Sequence record: PZ154895.1
DNA from: a phage
DNA length: 64,000 nucleotides
Reading direction: 5' to 3' (one strand)
The notes beneath the pieces were generated by a model. That model was not told the DNA's origin and searched no databases. It saw only the letters and a program-made list of their open reading frames with translations. Position 1 is the stretch's first letter, and each line of letters starts with the position of its first letter. Position numbers and translations under genes: made by a program. Positions 54,376 to 59,850 of this stretch are shown here, in pieces.

Positions 54376-54559
54376 TCCTAAAAATAAAGCGGAAATTATT
54401 CGACACTGGACCGAAACACGAGTAACTAAATGCCCTATAAAAAGTCAACACAATACCGATAAATGGTATATCGGCGAATATGTTGAATATACTTTTATAG
54501 ATAAAAATAAACGTAAACAGCATGTAGAAGAATATTGTTTAAAGGTGCAATGGTTATGA
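54347..54559 (+). CDS. hypothetical small protein
   Basis: 70-aa ORF overlapping neighbours; weak. Confidence 0.3.
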   Translation: MKVHYPHPFDPKNKAEIIRHWTETRVTKCPIKSQHNTDKWYIGEYVEYTFIDKNKRKQHVEEYCLKVQWL

Positions 54560-54741
54560 GTCTAAGCATTAGTCAGAAAAGTAGATTATTTGAGCTTATT
54601 CATGAGCTTTTGGATGAGCATACAGAAGCAAACACCTTTTATGATGAATACGGCCCGCTATCTCCCGAACAGCAGGAAGAATTTGCTGATCGGTTTGATA
54701 AGAAAGAAAATGAATTAATAGCTTATGTGAATACGCTTTAA
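54535..54741 (+). CDS. hypothetical small acidic protein
   Basis: 68-aa ORF directly upstream of tk. Confidence 0.35.
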   Translation: MFKGAMVMSLSISQKSRLFELIHELLDEHTEANTFYDEYGPLSPEQQEEFADRFDKKENELIAYVNTL

Positions 54742-54750
54742 GAAGGTGAT

Positions 54751-55332
54751 ATGGCGAGTTTAATTTTTACTTATGCAGCAATGAATGCTGGAAAATCTGC
54801 TTCTCTTTTGACTGCTGCACATAATTATAAAGAACGTGGAATGAGTGTATTAGTTCTTAAGCCTGCTATTGATACTCGCGATTCTGTCTGTGAAGTCGTT
54901 TCTCGCATTGGAATTAAGCAGGAAGCGAATATTATTACGGATGATATGGATATTTTTGAGTTCTATAAATGGGCTGAAGCACAAAAAGATATTCATTGTG
55001 TATTTGTAGATGAAGCCCAGTTTTTAAAAACTGAACAGGTGCATCAATTAAGCCGAATTGTTGATACATATAATGTTCCTGTTATGGCTTATGGACTAAG
55101 GACTGATTTCGCTGGAAAATTATTTGAAGGTTCTAAAGAACTTTTGGCGATTGCAGATAAACTTATTGAACTAAAAGCAGTTTGTCATTGTGGTAAAAAA
55201 GCTATTATGACAGCTCGATTAATGGAAGATGGAACACCAGTTAAAGAGGGTAATCAAATCTGTATTGGTGATGAAATTTATGTTTCTTTGTGTAGAAAAC
55301 ATTGGAATGAATTAACTAAAAAGCTCGGTTAG
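54751..55332 (+). CDS. tk: thymidine kinase
   Basis: 193 aa; P-loop AMNAGKSAS and C-terminal zinc-ribbon Cys pairs; size as T4 Tk. Confidence 0.9.
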   Translation: MASLIFTYAAMNAGKSASLLTAAHNYKERGMSVLVLKPAIDTRDSVCEVVSRIGIKQEANIITDDMDIFEFYKWAEAQKDIHCVFVDEAQFLKTEQVHQLSRIVDTYNVPVMAYGLRTDFAGKLFEGSKELLAIADKLIELKAVCHCGKKAIMTARLMEDGTPVKEGNQICIGDEIYVSLCRKHWNELTKKLG

Positions 55333-55374: not shown

Positions 55375-55587
55375 ATGCTACAATTAACTGAAAAGCAACT
55401 TCGCAATCTTACTGTTCTTCAATTAGATGAAATTCGTAGGGAAGTTGGAAATATCATTTCAGCTTTGCGTCGAGAAGTATCACTCAACCAATCTCCGGCA
55501 GACTATACTAGATTGCGAAATTTTGAAAAATACCTTGATAAAGTTAAGGCCGTGCATCGGCATAAAGTAAATACAGGACAAAAATGA
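55375..55587 (+). CDS. hypothetical small protein (rI-adjacent)
   Basis: 70-aa ORF after a TATAAATA late promoter. Confidence 0.45.
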
Positions 55588-55599
55588 TAGGAGGCCTTT

Positions 55600-55893
55600 A
55601 TGGCCTTAAAAGCAACGGCATTATTTGCCATGCTAGGATTAGCGTTTGCTTTATCTCCACCAATTGAAGCGAATGTCGATCCTCATTTTGATAAATTTAT
55701 GGAATCTGGTATTAGACATGTTTATATGCTTTTTGAAAATAAAAGCGTAGAATCATCTGAACAGTTCTATAGTTTTATGCGAACGACCTATAAAAATGAC
55801 CCGTGCTCTTCCGATTTTGAATGTATAGAGCGAGGCGCGGAGATGGCACAATCATACGCTAGAATTATGAACATTAAATTGGAGACTGAATGA
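55600..55893 (+). CDS. rI: RI lysis-inhibition regulator (periplasmic antiholin)
   Basis: 97 aa with N-terminal signal-anchor MALKATALFAMLGLAFALSPPIEA; size and position next to tk as in T4. Confidence 0.7.
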   Translation: MALKATALFAMLGLAFALSPPIEANVDPHFDKFMESGIRHVYMLFENKSVESSEQFYSFMRTTYKNDPCSSDFECIERGAEMAQSYARIMNIKLETE

Positions 55894-56276
55894 AATTCAG
55901 CGACTTTTCACAAAGCGGAAAACCTTCAAAGGCAGATGAATACTTAGGTTTATTAATGGCTGCGCAAGCTTATTTTCATTCTGCGCATTTTGAAACTAAA
56001 AGTTATGCTAGACACAAAGCATACGATTTTATTTTCTCTGAGTTGCCAGATTTGATTGATAAATTTGGTGAGCAATATTTGGGGTATTCTGGTAGAAAAT
56101 ACACGCCGTCAATTCCGGATGCCAGTAAACTTCCTACCGACACAATTAAAATGATTGATCGTATACTAGACCAATCTAACAGCATTTACAAAGAAATGCC
56201 TCCAGCCATTCAAAGCACGATAGATGATATTACTGGAATGTTTTACCAGAGTAAGTATCTTCTTTCCCTCGAATAA
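55890..56276 (+). CDS. hypothetical protein (rI-adjacent)
   Basis: 128-aa ORF overlapping rI stop; followed by a terminator. Confidence 0.5.
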
Positions 56277-56280
56277 CATT

Positions 56281-56304
56281 AGTCTCCTTCGGGAGACTTT
56301 TTTC
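56281..56304 (+). terminator. intrinsic terminator after the rI-adjacent ORF
   Basis: hairpin agtctcc-ttcg-ggagact followed by TTTTTT. Confidence 0.75.
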
Positions 56305-56307
56305 ATT

Positions 56308-56347
56308 TTACCGGTTTACTTTCCATTTGAGCTGTGATACTATACAA
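56308..56347 (+). promoter_or_regulatory. T4-type early promoter
   Basis: -35 GTTTAC 56314-56319, -10 TGATACTATAC, immediately after a terminator hairpin. Confidence 0.7.
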
Positions 56348-56371
56348 CCATCAGATAAAGAGGAGAACATC

Positions 56372-56560
56372 ATGAAAATTGAAGCACTTAATCAAGAAGG
56401 AAATATCTACGTCATCATTAATGGTGATTTTTTCGTCGACATGGATGAAGTTACCAGTGAAGAACTTGAAGAACTTCTTAAGAAACGTTATGATATGTGT
56501 GATGAAGCTGCAACTCATATGGCGTGTGCAATATTCTCTCTTTCATATGTGGTGGAATAA
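56372..56560 (+). CDS. hypothetical small acidic protein
   Basis: 62 aa from MKIEALNQ with GAGGAG SD after an early promoter. Confidence 0.4.
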
Positions 56561-56763
56561 TGATTAGTATAGAACAAGCAGATAAAATTAAAGAATTGGT
56601 AGCTTTAATTCGCAAAGCAGACGAGGAACTTAGTGACTTTGCTTGGTTTTCGGCAGGCATTGCAAATAAAGGCGCTGAAGAACTTGAAGCTAAAGTTGAT
56701 AATGCTGTAGAAGCTTTAGATATGTTTCTTGATGAAATTATCGATCATAATACGAGAGTTTAA
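56560..56763 (+). CDS. hypothetical small protein
   Basis: 67 aa from [16 protein letters not shown] coupling. Confidence 0.4.
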   Translation: MISIEQADKIKELVALIRKADEELSDFAWFSAGIANKGAEELEAKVDNAVEALDMFLDEIIDHNTRV

Positions 56764-56765
56764 GT

Positions 56766-56960
56766 ATGCTAACACGTGAACAGTTTGAAAAAATCATTAA
56801 ATTAGCACGTGATATTGAAATAGATTCATACCAATTGGCAGTTGAGCATTGTGAAGGATATTCATACGATGGTATAGAAGCAGCTAAAAAGGATTTGGAT
56901 AAATCCAAAGCTAAGTTAGTTCAATATCTTGAAATGATTAGGTGGAATAATGAAAACTGA
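56766..56960 (+). CDS. hypothetical small protein
   Basis: 64-aa ORF. Confidence 0.4.
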   Translation: MLTREQFEKIIKLARDIEIDSYQLAVEHCEGYSYDGIEAAKKDLDKSKAKLVQYLEMIRWNNEN

Positions 56961-57123
56961 AAAGCAGATGTTTTTAATGAAGCTAATTGAAGAATATGCT
57001 AATGCAGTTTCTGACTATGAGTGTTCTTCTCGGGAAAGAGGTACAGCTTTCGCAAAGGAAGAAATGAAAATCATGGTTGATGCTCACACAAAGCTTCAGA
57101 ATTTTATTGAAAACGTCATTTAA
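56950..57123 (+). CDS. hypothetical small protein
   Basis: 57-aa ORF overlapping upstream stop; below the ORF-track cutoff. Confidence 0.35.
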   Translation: MKTEKQMFLMKLIEEYANAVSDYECSSRERGTAFAKEEMKIMVDAHTKLQNFIENVI

Positions 57124-57158
57124 TGGTTTACAAGTTGGCAAGGTTATGGTATAGTAAT
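57119..57158 (+). promoter_or_regulatory. T4-type early promoter
   Basis: -35 GTTTAC 57125-57130, -10 TGGTATAGT. Confidence 0.65.
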
Positions 57159-57290
57159 CTTGTCAACTGCCAAGGAGAAGAGAATGAAAGTTTTGTTTGT
57201 TGTGTATGTGATGATTCAATATAATTACCCGATGTTTACTTATAATCTGGTGAACAACATTATTGATATTATTCAAAGGAGTATGTAATT

Positions 57291-57848
57291 GTGGGTGAGT
57301 CGAAGAGAATCAATATGAAACGATTAGTATTAGAAGTTAGTCCGCTTTTTGGTGAATTGGCTATAGAAAAAGTAAATAACATGTATCGTTTGACACAAGA
57401 AGACGATATGCTGTATTTTACGCCTAGTGAAATCATTCATTTAACCCAAATTGAATATCCTTATACTGATAAAATAGTAAGCATCAATGATGAGCACAAA
57501 ATTCATTTTTATTCTTCATGCCCAGGATTTAATATTAACAGTGAGTCAATGTGTTTATCAGTTATCCATTGGGATAGTTTTATAGCTAAGATTAAATATT
57601 TTTATTATTCTAATGAAAGAAAACATAGTTTAAAATGGCTTAAAAATTGCAATGCTATTATTACTAACGCTTGCAATCAGAATGATGAAACTCTTTTAAA
57701 TGTATCAAAATGTTATGAAGAGGGAGATGTCTTAACTATTCGTCAAATTGACGATTTTCGATCACATATTGTTACATTTACCAAAGACGAAGCTATTGCG
57801 CTAAAGACTTATCTTGATTCTGTCATTCCAACTATGATTTCAAAGTGA
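57291..57848 (+). CDS. hypothetical protein, paralog A (GTG start)
   Basis: 185 aa; AGGAG SD 9 nt upstream of GTG; C-terminus LTIRQ...FTKDEAIALKTYLDSVIPTM homologous to the next ORF. Confidence 0.5.
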   Translation: MGESKRINMKRLVLEVSPLFGELAIEKVNNMYRLTQEDDMLYFTPSEIIHLTQIEYPYTDKIVSINDEHKIHFYSSCPGFNINSESMCLSVIHWDSFIAKIKYFYYSNERKHSLKWLKNCNAIITNACNQNDETLLNVSKCYEEGDVLTIRQIDDFRSHIVTFTKDEAIALKTYLDSVIPTMISK

Positions 57849-57854
57849 GGAAAT

Positions 57855-58376
57855 ATGTTTATTTCAAGTGAAAGCGGTTTAATTCGTGTTGAATTTAAAA
57901 ATGACATCTTCCTTATTCAAGGAGATGATATTATTAAAATGAGTTATGACGAAATCAAGAAAATTTGTCATGCTCTTGAAAGCCATGGAAAAGTAAATGC
58001 TACTATCGATATAGGTGATTTATGGGTGACACTTTATGAAGTATCCGAAGGATTTAACATTGAAGATGAAAATAACATCTTAGCTATTGATAAAAGAAGT
58101 GATTTGTTTGATGTGTTAAAAGTTTATGAACAGTCAAACGGTGGAAGAAAAGCTGCATTGATTTATCAAAAACCACATTCATGTGGAACTGCTTCAATCA
58201 TTTCAAATATTGAAGATGAAACTGATACTTATATGTGTGTTTTAAAGGCTGGTGGTGACCGTCATCCGGATTTTATTTCTATTCGTCAAAACAATGGAGA
58301 AATTTCATTATCAAAATCAGAAGCTGAAGCTATGATTAAGTATTTAACAACTGTTACACCTTCAATGAAAGGATAA
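57855..58376 (+). CDS. hypothetical protein, paralog B
   Basis: 173 aa; C-terminus ISIRQ...LSKSEAEAMIKYLTTVTPSM homologous to the previous ORF. Confidence 0.5.
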   Translation: MFISSESGLIRVEFKNDIFLIQGDDIIKMSYDEIKKICHALESHGKVNATIDIGDLWVTLYEVSEGFNIEDENNILAIDKRSDLFDVLKVYEQSNGGRKAALIYQKPHSCGTASIISNIEDETDTYMCVLKAGGDRHPDFISIRQNNGEISLSKSEAEAMIKYLTTVTPSMKG

Positions 58377-58378
58377 TT

Positions 58379-58840
58379 ATGATTATTAATGAAAGCTCTT
58401 GGCACTATAAATTATTCAAAATGTTTAATGATGAATGGAAACGACCTAAGACACTGTGCGCGTATTTTTGGTCTATTGTTATTCCTACATTTTTCGTTTC
58501 TTTTTTCGGATGTACTATACTCGCAGGTCTAACTATCATCTGTGCAGAAATCATACAGAAATGGCTTATTTTTGGTAGTTTATGGACTCTTATTCCATCA
58601 GCATTTATACTTGCCATTTTGCTTGTTTTACTTATTATTGGTTCATTTGTTATTCCTGCACAACTGCGTGAAAAATATAAAGATTATAAATGGAAAAAGG
58701 ATTATGCTTTACATGTAGAAAATATTGATAGGGCGTATAAAGGTTTACCTCCTATTCAACCTAAGAAATCTATTATCGTCGAATTTTTAAAAGCGCGTAA
58801 AGCTAAAGTATGTCCTGTTATTGAATATAAGGCTGAATGA
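58379..58840 (+). CDS. membrane protein (2-3 predicted TM helices)
   Basis: 153 aa with long hydrophobic segments; start 2 nt after previous stop. Confidence 0.5.
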   Translation: MIINESSWHYKLFKMFNDEWKRPKTLCAYFWSIVIPTFFVSFFGCTILAGLTIICAEIIQKWLIFGSLWTLIPSAFILAILLVLLIIGSFVIPAQLREKYKDYKWKKDYALHVENIDRAYKGLPPIQPKKSIIVEFLKARKAKVCPVIEYKAE

Positions 58841-59850
58841 TGAAAACAGTAATGAAAAGCTATTTTGGTAGTCATCTTTATGGAACTTCTACTCCAGAAT
58901 CTGATGTAGATTTTAAAGAAATCTTTGTTCCTCCTGCTCGCGATATTCTTATCGGAAATGTTAAAGAGCATATGAGTAAAAACACTAACAACACATCATC
59001 TAAAAACACTAAAGATGATATTGACCATGAACTATACAGTCTTAAGTATTTCTTTAAATTAGCAGCAGATGGTGAAACTGTAGCATTGGATATGCTCCAC
59101 ACTCCACCTGAGTTAGTGGTTAAATCTGATTTGCCTGATGTATGGAAGTTTATTCAAGACAATCGTTCTCGTTTTTATACGACTAACATGAAATCCTATT
59201 TAGGATATGTTCGCAAGCAAGCTTCTAAATATGGTGTTAAGGGTTCTCGTTTGGCCGCATTGCGTGATGTATTGAAAGTAGTTAATCAAATCCCTGATCA
59301 GTGGGTTGATTACCAAGAAGACGGTTCCATTAAGCAGCGTCGCACTAAAGTTGAAGATATTAAGCATCGTCTTCCAGAAAACGAGTTCTGTGAATGGGTG
59401 TTCCACAATCATGAGAAAACAGGCCCACAAACGTTCTATACTGTGTTGGGTCGTAAATATCAGACAACTCTTTCTCTTATTGAGCTTAAGCAGTCTTTGA
59501 ATAAACTTGATGCCGAATACGGTGAACGCGCTCGTAAGGCTGAAGCTAATGAGGGCATTGACTGGAAAGCTTTGAGTCATGCTTGTCGTGGTGGACTCCA
59601 ACTATTGGAAATTTACAAAACTGGTGACTTGGTTTATCCACTTAAAGATGCTCCATTTATTCTCGACGTGAAGTTGGGTAAACATCCATTTAAAACTGTT
59701 CAAGAGTTTTTGGAAGATGTGGTCGATCAAGTAGAAGCAGCATCCATTGAAGCTTCTAAGAACGGTATGCAGCAAAAAGTAGACATGGGTTTCTGGGATG
59801 ACTTCCTTGAGAGGGTTTATCTTGAAAACCACCGAAGTTATTATAAATGA
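58837..59850 (+). CDS. Pol-beta-superfamily nucleotidyltransferase-like protein
   Basis: 337 aa; N-terminal GSHLYGTSTPESDVDF fits the GS-x(9-13)-D-x-D NTase motif, with a candidate third acidic residue in VALDML. Confidence 0.55.
   Translation: MMKTVMKSYFGSHLYGTSTPESDVDFKEIFVPPARDILIGNVKEHMSKNTNNTSSKNTKDDIDHELYSLKYFFKLAADGETVALDMLHTPPELVVKSDLPDVWKFIQDNRSRFYTTNMKSYLGYVRKQASKYGVKGSRLAALRDVLKVVNQIPDQWVDYQEDGSIKQRRTKVEDIKHRLPENEFCEWVFHNHEKTGPQTFYTVLGRKYQTTLSLIELKQSLNKLDAEYGERARKAEANEGIDWKALSHACRGGLQLLEIYKTGDLVYPLKDAPFILDVKLGKHPFKTVQEFLEDVVDQVEAASIEASKNGMQQKVDMGFWDDFLERVYLENHRSYYK

Follow-up and report, generated by a model that had tools for sequence, protein, structure and literature searches.

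Bacteriophage T4 carries four small genes, mobD.5, mobD.4, mobD.3 and mobD.2a (NP_049715, NP_049714, NP_049713 and NP_813809), between rI.-1 and mobD.2/mobD.1, and orthologues of these genes occur in phages ime09, RB14, T2 and T6. The four genes are already catalogued in T-even phages; our literature search found no paper that assigns a function to any of the four or that mentions DUF7438, the Pfam family to which three of them belong. Proteins of comparable character are found among the small early products of T4, such as the antitoxin mimic Dmd, Arn, AsiA and the product of nrdC.1. Like the mobD proteins, these are 60-90 amino acids long, immediate-early, acidic, dispensable in the laboratory and encoded in accessory strings, and they have no sequence or fold relation to the four proteins described here.

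The mobD genes of the window and their T4 counterparts

We analyzed a stretch of 64,000 nucleotides of phage DNA (record PZ154895.1; hereafter the window), which is T4-type phage DNA (Tequatrovirus). The genes around the four ORFs are arranged as follows, with ORF1-4 taken to begin at the ATG codons that annotations of related phages use:

54556-54741, + strand, tk.2, located 5' of tk; a DUF7438 paralogue (PF24219, 59.8 bits)
54751-55332, + strand, tk
55375-55587, + strand, rI.1
55600-55893, + strand, rI
55890-56276, + strand, rI.-1
56372-56560, + strand, ORF1 = mobD.5 (62 aa; net charge -10.4)
56560-56763, + strand, ORF2 = mobD.4 (67 aa; net charge -9.4)
56766-56960, + strand, ORF3 = mobD.3 (64 aa; net charge -3.4)
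56950-57123, + strand, ORF4 = full-length mobD.2a (57 aa; net charge -2.4)
57184-57288, + strand, mobD.2
57291-57848 and 57855-58376, + strand, two mobD.1 paralogues
58379-58840, + strand, 153-aa predicted membrane-type protein without an HNH domain
58837-59850, + strand, nrdC.11

An earlier note on this DNA had pointed to four small same-strand ORFs at 56372-57123, on the T4 rI/mobD side, and had treated them as unnamed mini-proteins. The ORFs are present, with lengths of 62, 67, 64 and 57 aa from their ATG starts, and the placement is right, since the gene order matches that of ime09, SA20RB and T4. The ORFs do, however, have long-standing names. A megablast search with positions 56300-57300 matched 501 phage records (92.9-99% identity); the whole chain is present in 489 (covering at least 80% of the query), and the named records (ime09, RB14, PP01 and T4) label the ORFs mobD.5, mobD.4, mobD.3 and mobD.2a. 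It is nearly certain that ORF1-4 are the orthologues of these long-annotated T4 genes. As it stands, the re-detection of four annotated T-even genes changes little; what is new here is a family-level view of the proteins, predictions of their structures, the contrasting selection regimes under which they evolve, and the correction of misleading names.

The window and T4 share the terminator-promoter-Shine-Dalgarno layout and the protein families, with a DNA identity of 96% (mean column identity); ime09 and SA20RB are closer to the window, at 98.6-98.8%. Two of the four genes differ in length between the window and T4. The mobD.4 allele of the window encodes 67 aa, whereas the T4 allele encodes 60 aa and has a divergent tip that is 21 nt shorter. 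The mobD.2a gene of the window is intact (57 aa), whereas in the T4 reference a 1-nt deletion shifts the frame and leaves 38 aa, both halves of the gene remaining recognizable there in two frames. The window also differs from T4 in having two paralogues of mobD.1, and in lacking the mobD HNH gene that in T4 lies between nrdC.11 and mobD.1. The statement in the earlier note that no gene of homing endonuclease size is present here is correct: the window has no HNH nuclease gene of ~260 aa between mobD.1 and nrdC.11, and the mobD slot is occupied by the 153-aa protein, which gives no HNH match. RB14 has a homologue, RB32ORF096c (similar to RB69ORF104c), which its annotation describes as 'replaces mobD'. 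We attribute antisense ORFs of 52-60 aa opposite these genes to the AT-richness of sequence facing conserved genes, and dismissed them.

Transcription and translation of the unit

The four genes are framed by the following signals:

56281-56298, + strand, hairpin of an intrinsic terminator, extending to 56306 with its T run (AGTCTCC-TTCG-GGAGACT; 7-bp stem with 4 GC pairs)
56314-56343, + strand, T4-type early promoter (-35 element GTTTAC at 56314-56319, 14 nt, then GTGATACTAT at 56334-56343)
56360-56365, + strand, Shine-Dalgarno sequence GAGGAG of ORF1, containing GGAG
56551-56563, + strand, 13-nt junction motif GGTGGAATAATGA, copy 1, at ORF1/ORF2 (Shine-Dalgarno-like GGTGG plus start codon)
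56941-56953, + strand, the same junction motif, copy 2, at ORF3/ORF4 (100% identical to copy 1)
57126-57155, + strand, next early promoter (GTTTAC, 14 nt, ATGGTATAGT; 10/12 match, with TG)

The terminator at 56281-56306 closes the tk-rI.1-rI-rI.-1 unit; it is annotated in SA20RB and conserved in VR7, which keeps the whole terminator-promoter-Shine-Dalgarno architecture. The early promoter that follows it is also annotated ahead of ORF1 in SA20RB, and the T4 mobD.5 promoter differs from that of the window at 2 positions. A promoter ahead of the ORFs had been proposed at 56308, a coordinate that is wrong, as the -35 element lies at 56314-56319; a generic sigma-70 scan misses the promoter altogether. 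A second early promoter directly 3' of ORF4 makes the four genes a promoter-bounded unit. No late promoter or MotA box was found within this unit, and an Rfam search of it found nothing, its one match having an E-value of 0.69.

The evidence that the promoter is active comes from T4. The transcript from the T4 mobD.5 promoter was mapped by primer extension, in a study where it served as a RegB-insensitive control (PMC1702504), and in T4 the RNA of all four genes is classed as 'early' (PMC9697503 Table S2). Together with the early promoter sequence, these data uphold the view that the unit is early and promoter-driven. The Shine-Dalgarno sequence of ORF1 includes GGAG; the T4 mobD.5 transcript is nevertheless reported to be RegB-insensitive (PMC1702504).

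In the proteome part of this time-resolved T4 study, MobD.3 and MobD.4 are classed as 'early' proteins, and neither MobD.5 nor MobD.2a was found (PMC9697503 Table S2). We take these two non-detections as weak evidence. That of MobD.5 is uninformative because the protein yields only two tryptic peptides, one of 35 and one of 23 residues, which contain Cys and Met, and that of MobD.2a counts for little because the spectra were searched against the truncated form of this protein. A complete lack of detectable translation had been named beforehand as the result that would speak against the ORFs; the early detection of MobD.3 and MobD.4 in T4 is the opposite result (PMC9697503).

The chain had further been described as linked throughout by overlapping stop and start codons. 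This is so for ORF1/ORF2, which share one base (TAATG), and for ORF3/ORF4, which overlap by 11 nt, but not for ORF2/ORF3, which are separated by a 2-nt gap (TAA-GT-ATG). A Shine-Dalgarno-like element is present at each of the four starts. RNA folding of the junctions revealed no occluding structure, the predicted folds being no better than those of shuffled sequences (z-scores 0.0 to +1.5). It is plausible, from the geometry of the junctions, that translation of the four ORFs is coupled, and the close or overlapping stops and starts would probably cause the four products to be translated to about the same extent.

The exact 13-nt motif common to both overlapping junctions may have a second consequence. 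In phages ESCO58 and VEc20, mobD.4 opens with the N-terminus of mobD.2a (MKTEKQ), and because the motif is shared by the junctions at which both genes begin, the paralogues mobD.4 and mobD.2a appear to exchange ends, with the motif as a plausible site of exchange.

The DUF7438 family and predicted folds

ORFs 2-4 match Pfam DUF7438 (PF24219) with 59.5, 64.1 and 56.5 bits, respectively, against a cut-off of 25. Their mutual identity is only 22-27%, and because all three nevertheless match the family well above threshold, the sequence comparison identifies them as old tandem paralogues. They share an N-terminal M-[IL]-T-x-E-Q...L..I motif and a C-terminal L..[FY]L helix. ORF1 (mobD.5) has no match in Pfam and is not a member. 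A family HMM run over all ORFs of the window recovered exactly four copies, namely ORFs 2-4 and tk.2; this HMM was built from clean alignments, fusion proteins having earlier caused false matches on mobD.2 and nrdC.11. Other members are T4 tk.1 and tk.2, RB14ncORF101c, RB69 'tk.1' and 'mobD.2a', and the ORF that follows mobD.2 in RB14, T6 and RB5, and an hhalign comparison with the tk.1 group gave a probability of 97.4%. One expanded hairpin family therefore takes in mobD.4, mobD.3 and mobD.2a together with tk.1, tk.2 and an ORF elsewhere in the locus that is labelled 'helicase loader'.

Some DUF7438 members, as well as phrog_4859, carry the label 'helicase loader'. We rejected this name, which stems from the PHROG label and is accompanied by no helicase-loader match in Pfam or NCBIfam. 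The name 'MobD molybdopterin-guanine dinucleotide biosynthesis protein' was likewise rejected, as these proteins match only DUF7438 or nothing in Pfam and NCBIfam, with no match to a MobA/MobB model, and the name stems from the gene symbol mobD. Several public names of these proteins are therefore artefacts.

The family is narrowly distributed. An exhaustive DUF7438 profile search through 1.84 billion protein representatives found 20 clusters only, a word-indexed search found 81 clusters, and a scan of IMG/VR found 5 loci. Nearly all named clusters come from enterobacterial T-even-like phages, or from phage sequences that databases wrongly list as bacterial, and the phage matches of two distant members lie in Tevenvirinae. 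Judged on the named clusters among the 20 and on these two distant members, no cellular context is apparent. From nearly all of the named clusters, DUF7438 seems confined to enterobacterial T-even-like phages. Identity across genera is 20-50%, and in six genera each copy lies 3' of rI.-1 or in the interval from tk.4 to tk; the numbers per locus are as follows:

The window (Tequatrovirus), 4 copies
T4, 5 copies
RB14 and T6, 6 copies
VR7 (Gaprivervirus), 3 copies
IME08 (Dhakavirus), 3 copies
RB69 (Mosigvirus), 3 copies
phiA85 (Jiaodavirus), 3 copies (one weak, E = 0.024)
Merlin (Moonvirus), 2 copies
CkP1 (Karamvirus), 2 copies

We used mobD.3, with a 30-sequence alignment as input to AlphaFold2, as the sole hairpin paralogue to be modeled. 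The model is a two-helix hairpin with helices at residues 4-30 and 34-63 (pLDDT 93.6, pTM 0.77). Foldseek comparison with the PDB returned only generic hairpins and coiled coils, the best E-value being 0.25. Among these, the designed hairpin homo-oligomers 5j0k and 5j73 and the type III secretion protein CdsO (6wa9) resemble mobD.3 in consisting of ~60 aa folded as two antiparallel helices of ~28 residues; their query-normalized TM-scores of 0.68-0.80 come with no significant E-value and no sequence relation. ColE1 Rop is a helical hairpin that pairs into a four-helix bundle; it is not among the best 50 Foldseek matches to the mobD.3 model.

The remaining protein, mobD.5, matches phrog_3024 (4e-43), a family of unknown function, and our profile search found homologues only in Tequatrovirus and VR7/VR25-like phages. 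Its AlphaFold2 model has a three-stranded sheet and two helices (pLDDT 88.3), and Foldseek comparison with the PDB and BFVD returned at E <= 0.001 only its own orthologue. mobD.5 is an acidic mini-protein unrelated to the hairpin paralogues, and its fold is predicted to be alpha/beta. Overall identity among its homologues is 49%, yet the ten C-terminal residues never vary, even where the codons carry synonymous changes. Profile matches in the PDB to 'Bagel' proteins were rejected, because they cover 17 residues and include no passing stretch.

All four proteins are acidic and without hydrophobic segments. Searches of Pfam, NCBIfam, PADLOC and the PDB gave no enzyme, DNA-binding, membrane, defence or structural signature, and PHROGs, Pfam, NCBIfam and PADLOC assign the proteins only to DUF or unknown-function families.

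Selection, dispensability and candidate functions

Across 15 Tequatrovirus loci, pN/pS (Nei-Gojobori) for mobD.5, mobD.4, mobD.3 and mobD.2a is 0.19, 0.28, 0.06 and 0.17, respectively; pS lies in the range 0.08-0.25. Values for tk and tk.2 were left out as unreliable, since their homologues had been misaligned. The frames are intact in 14 of the 15 loci, the sole exception being mobD.2a of T4. By this comparison, purifying selection is clear in all four and they are real genes, as the earlier note had taken them to be.

Selection of this kind has to be set beside the dispensability of the genes in T4. A deletion spanning nrdC.11-mobD.3 is viable (PMC9825161). Knock-down of each of the four genes by CRISPRi-ART was scored 'Not Fit', which denotes no fitness effect, their essentiality having earlier been listed as 'UNKNOWN' (PMC11879866). 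In the parts of the HIDEN-SEQ study considered here, transposon insertions in T4 were tolerated at every TA site and all four genes were called 'Non-essential'; in its delta-rnlA library none of the four was depleted (adjusted p = 1.0), and in the uropathogenic strain CFE299, whose table we recognized by the -4.80 depletion of nrdC.1, the log2 fold changes were +0.10 for mobD.5, +0.93 for mobD.4, +0.19 for mobD.3 and +0.28 for mobD.2a (adjusted p >= 0.76; bioRxiv 10.1101/2025.11.20.689424). Its main text, which deals also with RexAB, RnlAB, DarTG1/2, CBASS, M9 medium, CFE331 and Mokosh, leaves the mobD genes unmentioned (10.1101/2025.11.20.689424). The four genes differ from dmd and nrdC.1, which show conditional insertion depletion where the four do not, at least in those T4 tables of the study that we consulted. 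A paper on daunorubicin whose 'toxic phage products' seemed pertinent concerns T5-like phages and was set aside as irrelevant.

The unit is accessory in character. Copy number ranges from 2 to 6, position varies among genera of the Tevenvirinae, the T4 deletion is viable, the screens score the genes as non-essential, and some phages have natural deletions in the region: in G8, mobD.3 is joined to nrdC.11, and in Bas43 a fusion links mobD.5 with the mobD.1 C-terminal domain. It might be argued from the dispensability of all four genes in every published test, from these deletions and from the frameshift in T4 mobD.2a that the genes are functionless filler, remnants of duplication in a hyperplastic region that are transcribed but useless. 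Such remnants would not be expected to remain under purifying selection in all four cases, at pN/pS of 0.06-0.28 with pS as high as 0.25, nor to hold their frames in 14 of 15 loci, to persist as a family across genera at 20-50% identity, to preserve the C-terminal peptide of mobD.5 through synonymous change, or to yield the two proteins detected in T4 (PMC9697503). The selection data largely refute this explanation, and we consider it very improbable.

Among Tequatrovirus phages the hairpin paralogues do not evolve alike: changes gather at the tip of mobD.4, whereas mobD.3 is almost frozen. In mobD.4, the variable residues 24-46 have a pN of 0.14, compared with 0.02-0.05 in the helices, and the tip carries indels of 0, 4 or 7 residues; its pN/pS of 0.49 does not amount to positive selection. 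In mobD.3, the CEGYSY tip shows no amino-acid change even though pS in the tip is 0.15. The variable tip of mobD.4 fits a variable target, and the frozen mobD.3 fits a conserved target, in the host or in the phage, better than an arms race.

The mosaicism of mobD.4 alleles, with pS of 0.25-0.38, suggests frequent recombination between co-infecting phages, and the region is a hot spot for insertion of mobile endonucleases, as with T4 mobD between nrdC.11 and mobD.1. Both observations would suit a module directed against other phages or protecting the phage from itself, through superinfection exclusion, as the antidote to a toxic early phage protein, or as a shield from homing endonucleases during co-infection. 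The proteins, however, have no membrane or secretion signals, unlike the known exclusion proteins Imm and Sp, no adjacent toxin candidate stands out, and the cluster is present with or without mobD. A role of this kind seems to us quite improbable.

Alternatively, the proteins may serve the phage's own machinery, as adaptors or regulators of tk and nucleotide metabolism, of rI lysis inhibition, or of the mobD.1 product, a 'y05I-like putative transcription factor'. We note this as the main rival to the explanation given below. In six genera the DUF7438 copies always adjoin tk/tk.4 or rI/rI.-1/mobD.1, and a near-frozen mobD.3, with its pN/pS of 0.06 and invariant tip, is what a slowly co-evolving partner would produce. 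Both rI.-1 and rI.1 reportedly have accessory roles in lysis inhibition, which we count on the same side. Against this, the unit is set apart from the rI genes by a terminator and by an early promoter of its own. The four genes are early, whereas the function of rI is considered late; neither knock-down nor insertion lowers fitness in standard infection; and in a hyperplastic region, conserved gene order says little about a common function. On balance we judge a role within the phage's own machinery rather unlikely.

The explanation that we prefer takes the four genes as mobD orthologues forming an accessory unit, which the early promoter ahead of it would switch on as soon as infection begins. 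Their products are small, acidic, soluble proteins, one of them predicted to be alpha/beta (mobD.5) and three of them hairpins that arose by tandem duplication, and these would most likely act stoichiometrically as binders of host, or possibly phage, macromolecules. Stoichiometric binding is suggested because the proteins are without catalytic features. The two helices of the hairpins would be a scaffold, and like or unlike hairpins might pair to give four-helix bundles; the aromatic-rich tip (CEGYSY in mobD.3, DFAWFS in mobD.4) would be the surface that confers specificity. Any benefit to the phage would be conditional on the host. Taken as a whole, this explanation seems to us evenly poised between right and wrong; the binder mechanism by itself is an inference that we offer tentatively, as falling a little short of probable.

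It is tempting to speculate further that the DUF7438 hairpins are phage-specific, multi-copy inhibitors, each tip neutralizing a different host immunity or stress protein, with mobD.5 as a separate inhibitor or as a partner of the hairpins. Redundancy, and targets absent from K-12, would then explain the missing single-gene phenotypes. This specific version is, in our estimation, unlikely. If true, it would explain part of the 'dark matter' of T4 and would reveal a compact, easily engineered scaffold for an anti-defence repertoire. The earlier note had likewise suggested host-takeover or anti-defence factors, a guess by analogy that the T4 screens leave unsupported. Redundancy among the paralogues could nonetheless mask a phenotype, so the screens do not refute the anti-defence idea, and the suggestion was a reasonable one given that nrdC.1, a neighbor in the same accessory stretch, inhibits Septu, according to the portion of the HIDEN-SEQ study considered here (10.1101/2025.11.20.689424).

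Paralogues around tk-rI and their junctions

The tk.2 gene is the fourth DUF7438 copy of the window, T4 tk.1 is an additional member, and the extra ORF lying 3' of mobD.2 in phages RB14, T6 and RB5 belongs to the family too; the tk-rI module therefore has DUF7438 members on either side. Within the four-ORF chain, one 13-nt motif, GGTGGAATAATGA, recurs exactly at two junctions.

54556-54741: tk.2
56551-56563: 13-nt motif, copy 1, mobD.5/mobD.4 (ORF1/ORF2) junction
56941-56953: 13-nt motif, copy 2, mobD.3/mobD.2a (ORF3/ORF4) junction

Because both junctions share this motif, and because the N-terminus of mobD.2a, MKTEKQ, forms the start of mobD.4 in phages ESCO58 and VEc20 (loci L013 and L014), the sequences suggest that the paralogues may recombine at the junction motif.

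Reading frames of mobD.5 and mobD.2a

The final ten residues of MobD.5 (window 56531-56560; 2732-2761 of the VR7 locus, L015) are identical between Tequatrovirus and the Gaprivervirus VR7, in proteins with 49% identity overall, even though the codons for this stretch have undergone synonymous changes. VR7 retains the TAATG stop/start junction after mobD.5, with a different gene downstream.

The 38-aa mobD.2a of the T4 reference (NC_000866; 3994-4178 of the T4 locus extract, L003) is a frameshifted form created by a 1-nt deletion. Since the 57-aa form is unbroken in the window (56950-57123), as it is in every other Tequatrovirus locus that was compared, and since the T4D annotation behind HIDEN-SEQ, a transposon mapping study, lists mobD.2a at 174 nt (bioRxiv 10.1101/2025.11.20.689424), the reference was probably either misread in sequencing or taken from a stock with its own mutation.

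Downstream neighbours and natural deletions

57291-57848: mobD.1 paralogue 1, Pfam T4_y05I_N and T4_y05I_C
57855-58376: mobD.1 paralogue 2, Pfam T4_y05I_N and T4_y05I_C
58379-58840: predicted membrane protein of 153 aa, matching phrog_944 and phrog_22816

The window encodes two tandem mobD.1 paralogues, whereas T4 has one; the family description of their domains is 'y05I-like putative transcription factor'. The slot that holds the mobD homing endonuclease in T4 is occupied in the window by the predicted membrane protein, whose homologues are proteins of the RB69ORF104c/RB32ORF096c type. In phage G8 (4001-4201 of locus L004), everything from mobD.2a up to and including the membrane protein is lost, and mobD.3, extended by 2 aa, runs straight into nrdC.11. 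In phage Bas43 (TadeuszReichstein; protein P0006), residues 1-46 of mobD.5 and the C-terminal domain of mobD.1 form one fusion protein.

Database names and rI.-1

Misleading names have spread among database homologues of window 56560-56960. Homologues of mobD.4 and mobD.3, RefSeq NP_049714.1 included, are called 'molybdopterin-guanine dinucleotide biosynthesis protein MobD'; tk.1-type members (RB69p106, RB14ORF101, phrog_4859) are labelled 'helicase loader'; and labels in T2 and T6 records include 'kilA anti-repressor' and 'integrase/recombinase'. None of these names is backed by a family model.

55890-56276: rI.-1, Pfam DUF5856

The strongest constraint in the neighbourhood falls on rI.-1 (pN/pS 0.02). 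Databases label it, without explanation, a 'starvation-inducible transcriptional regulator'.
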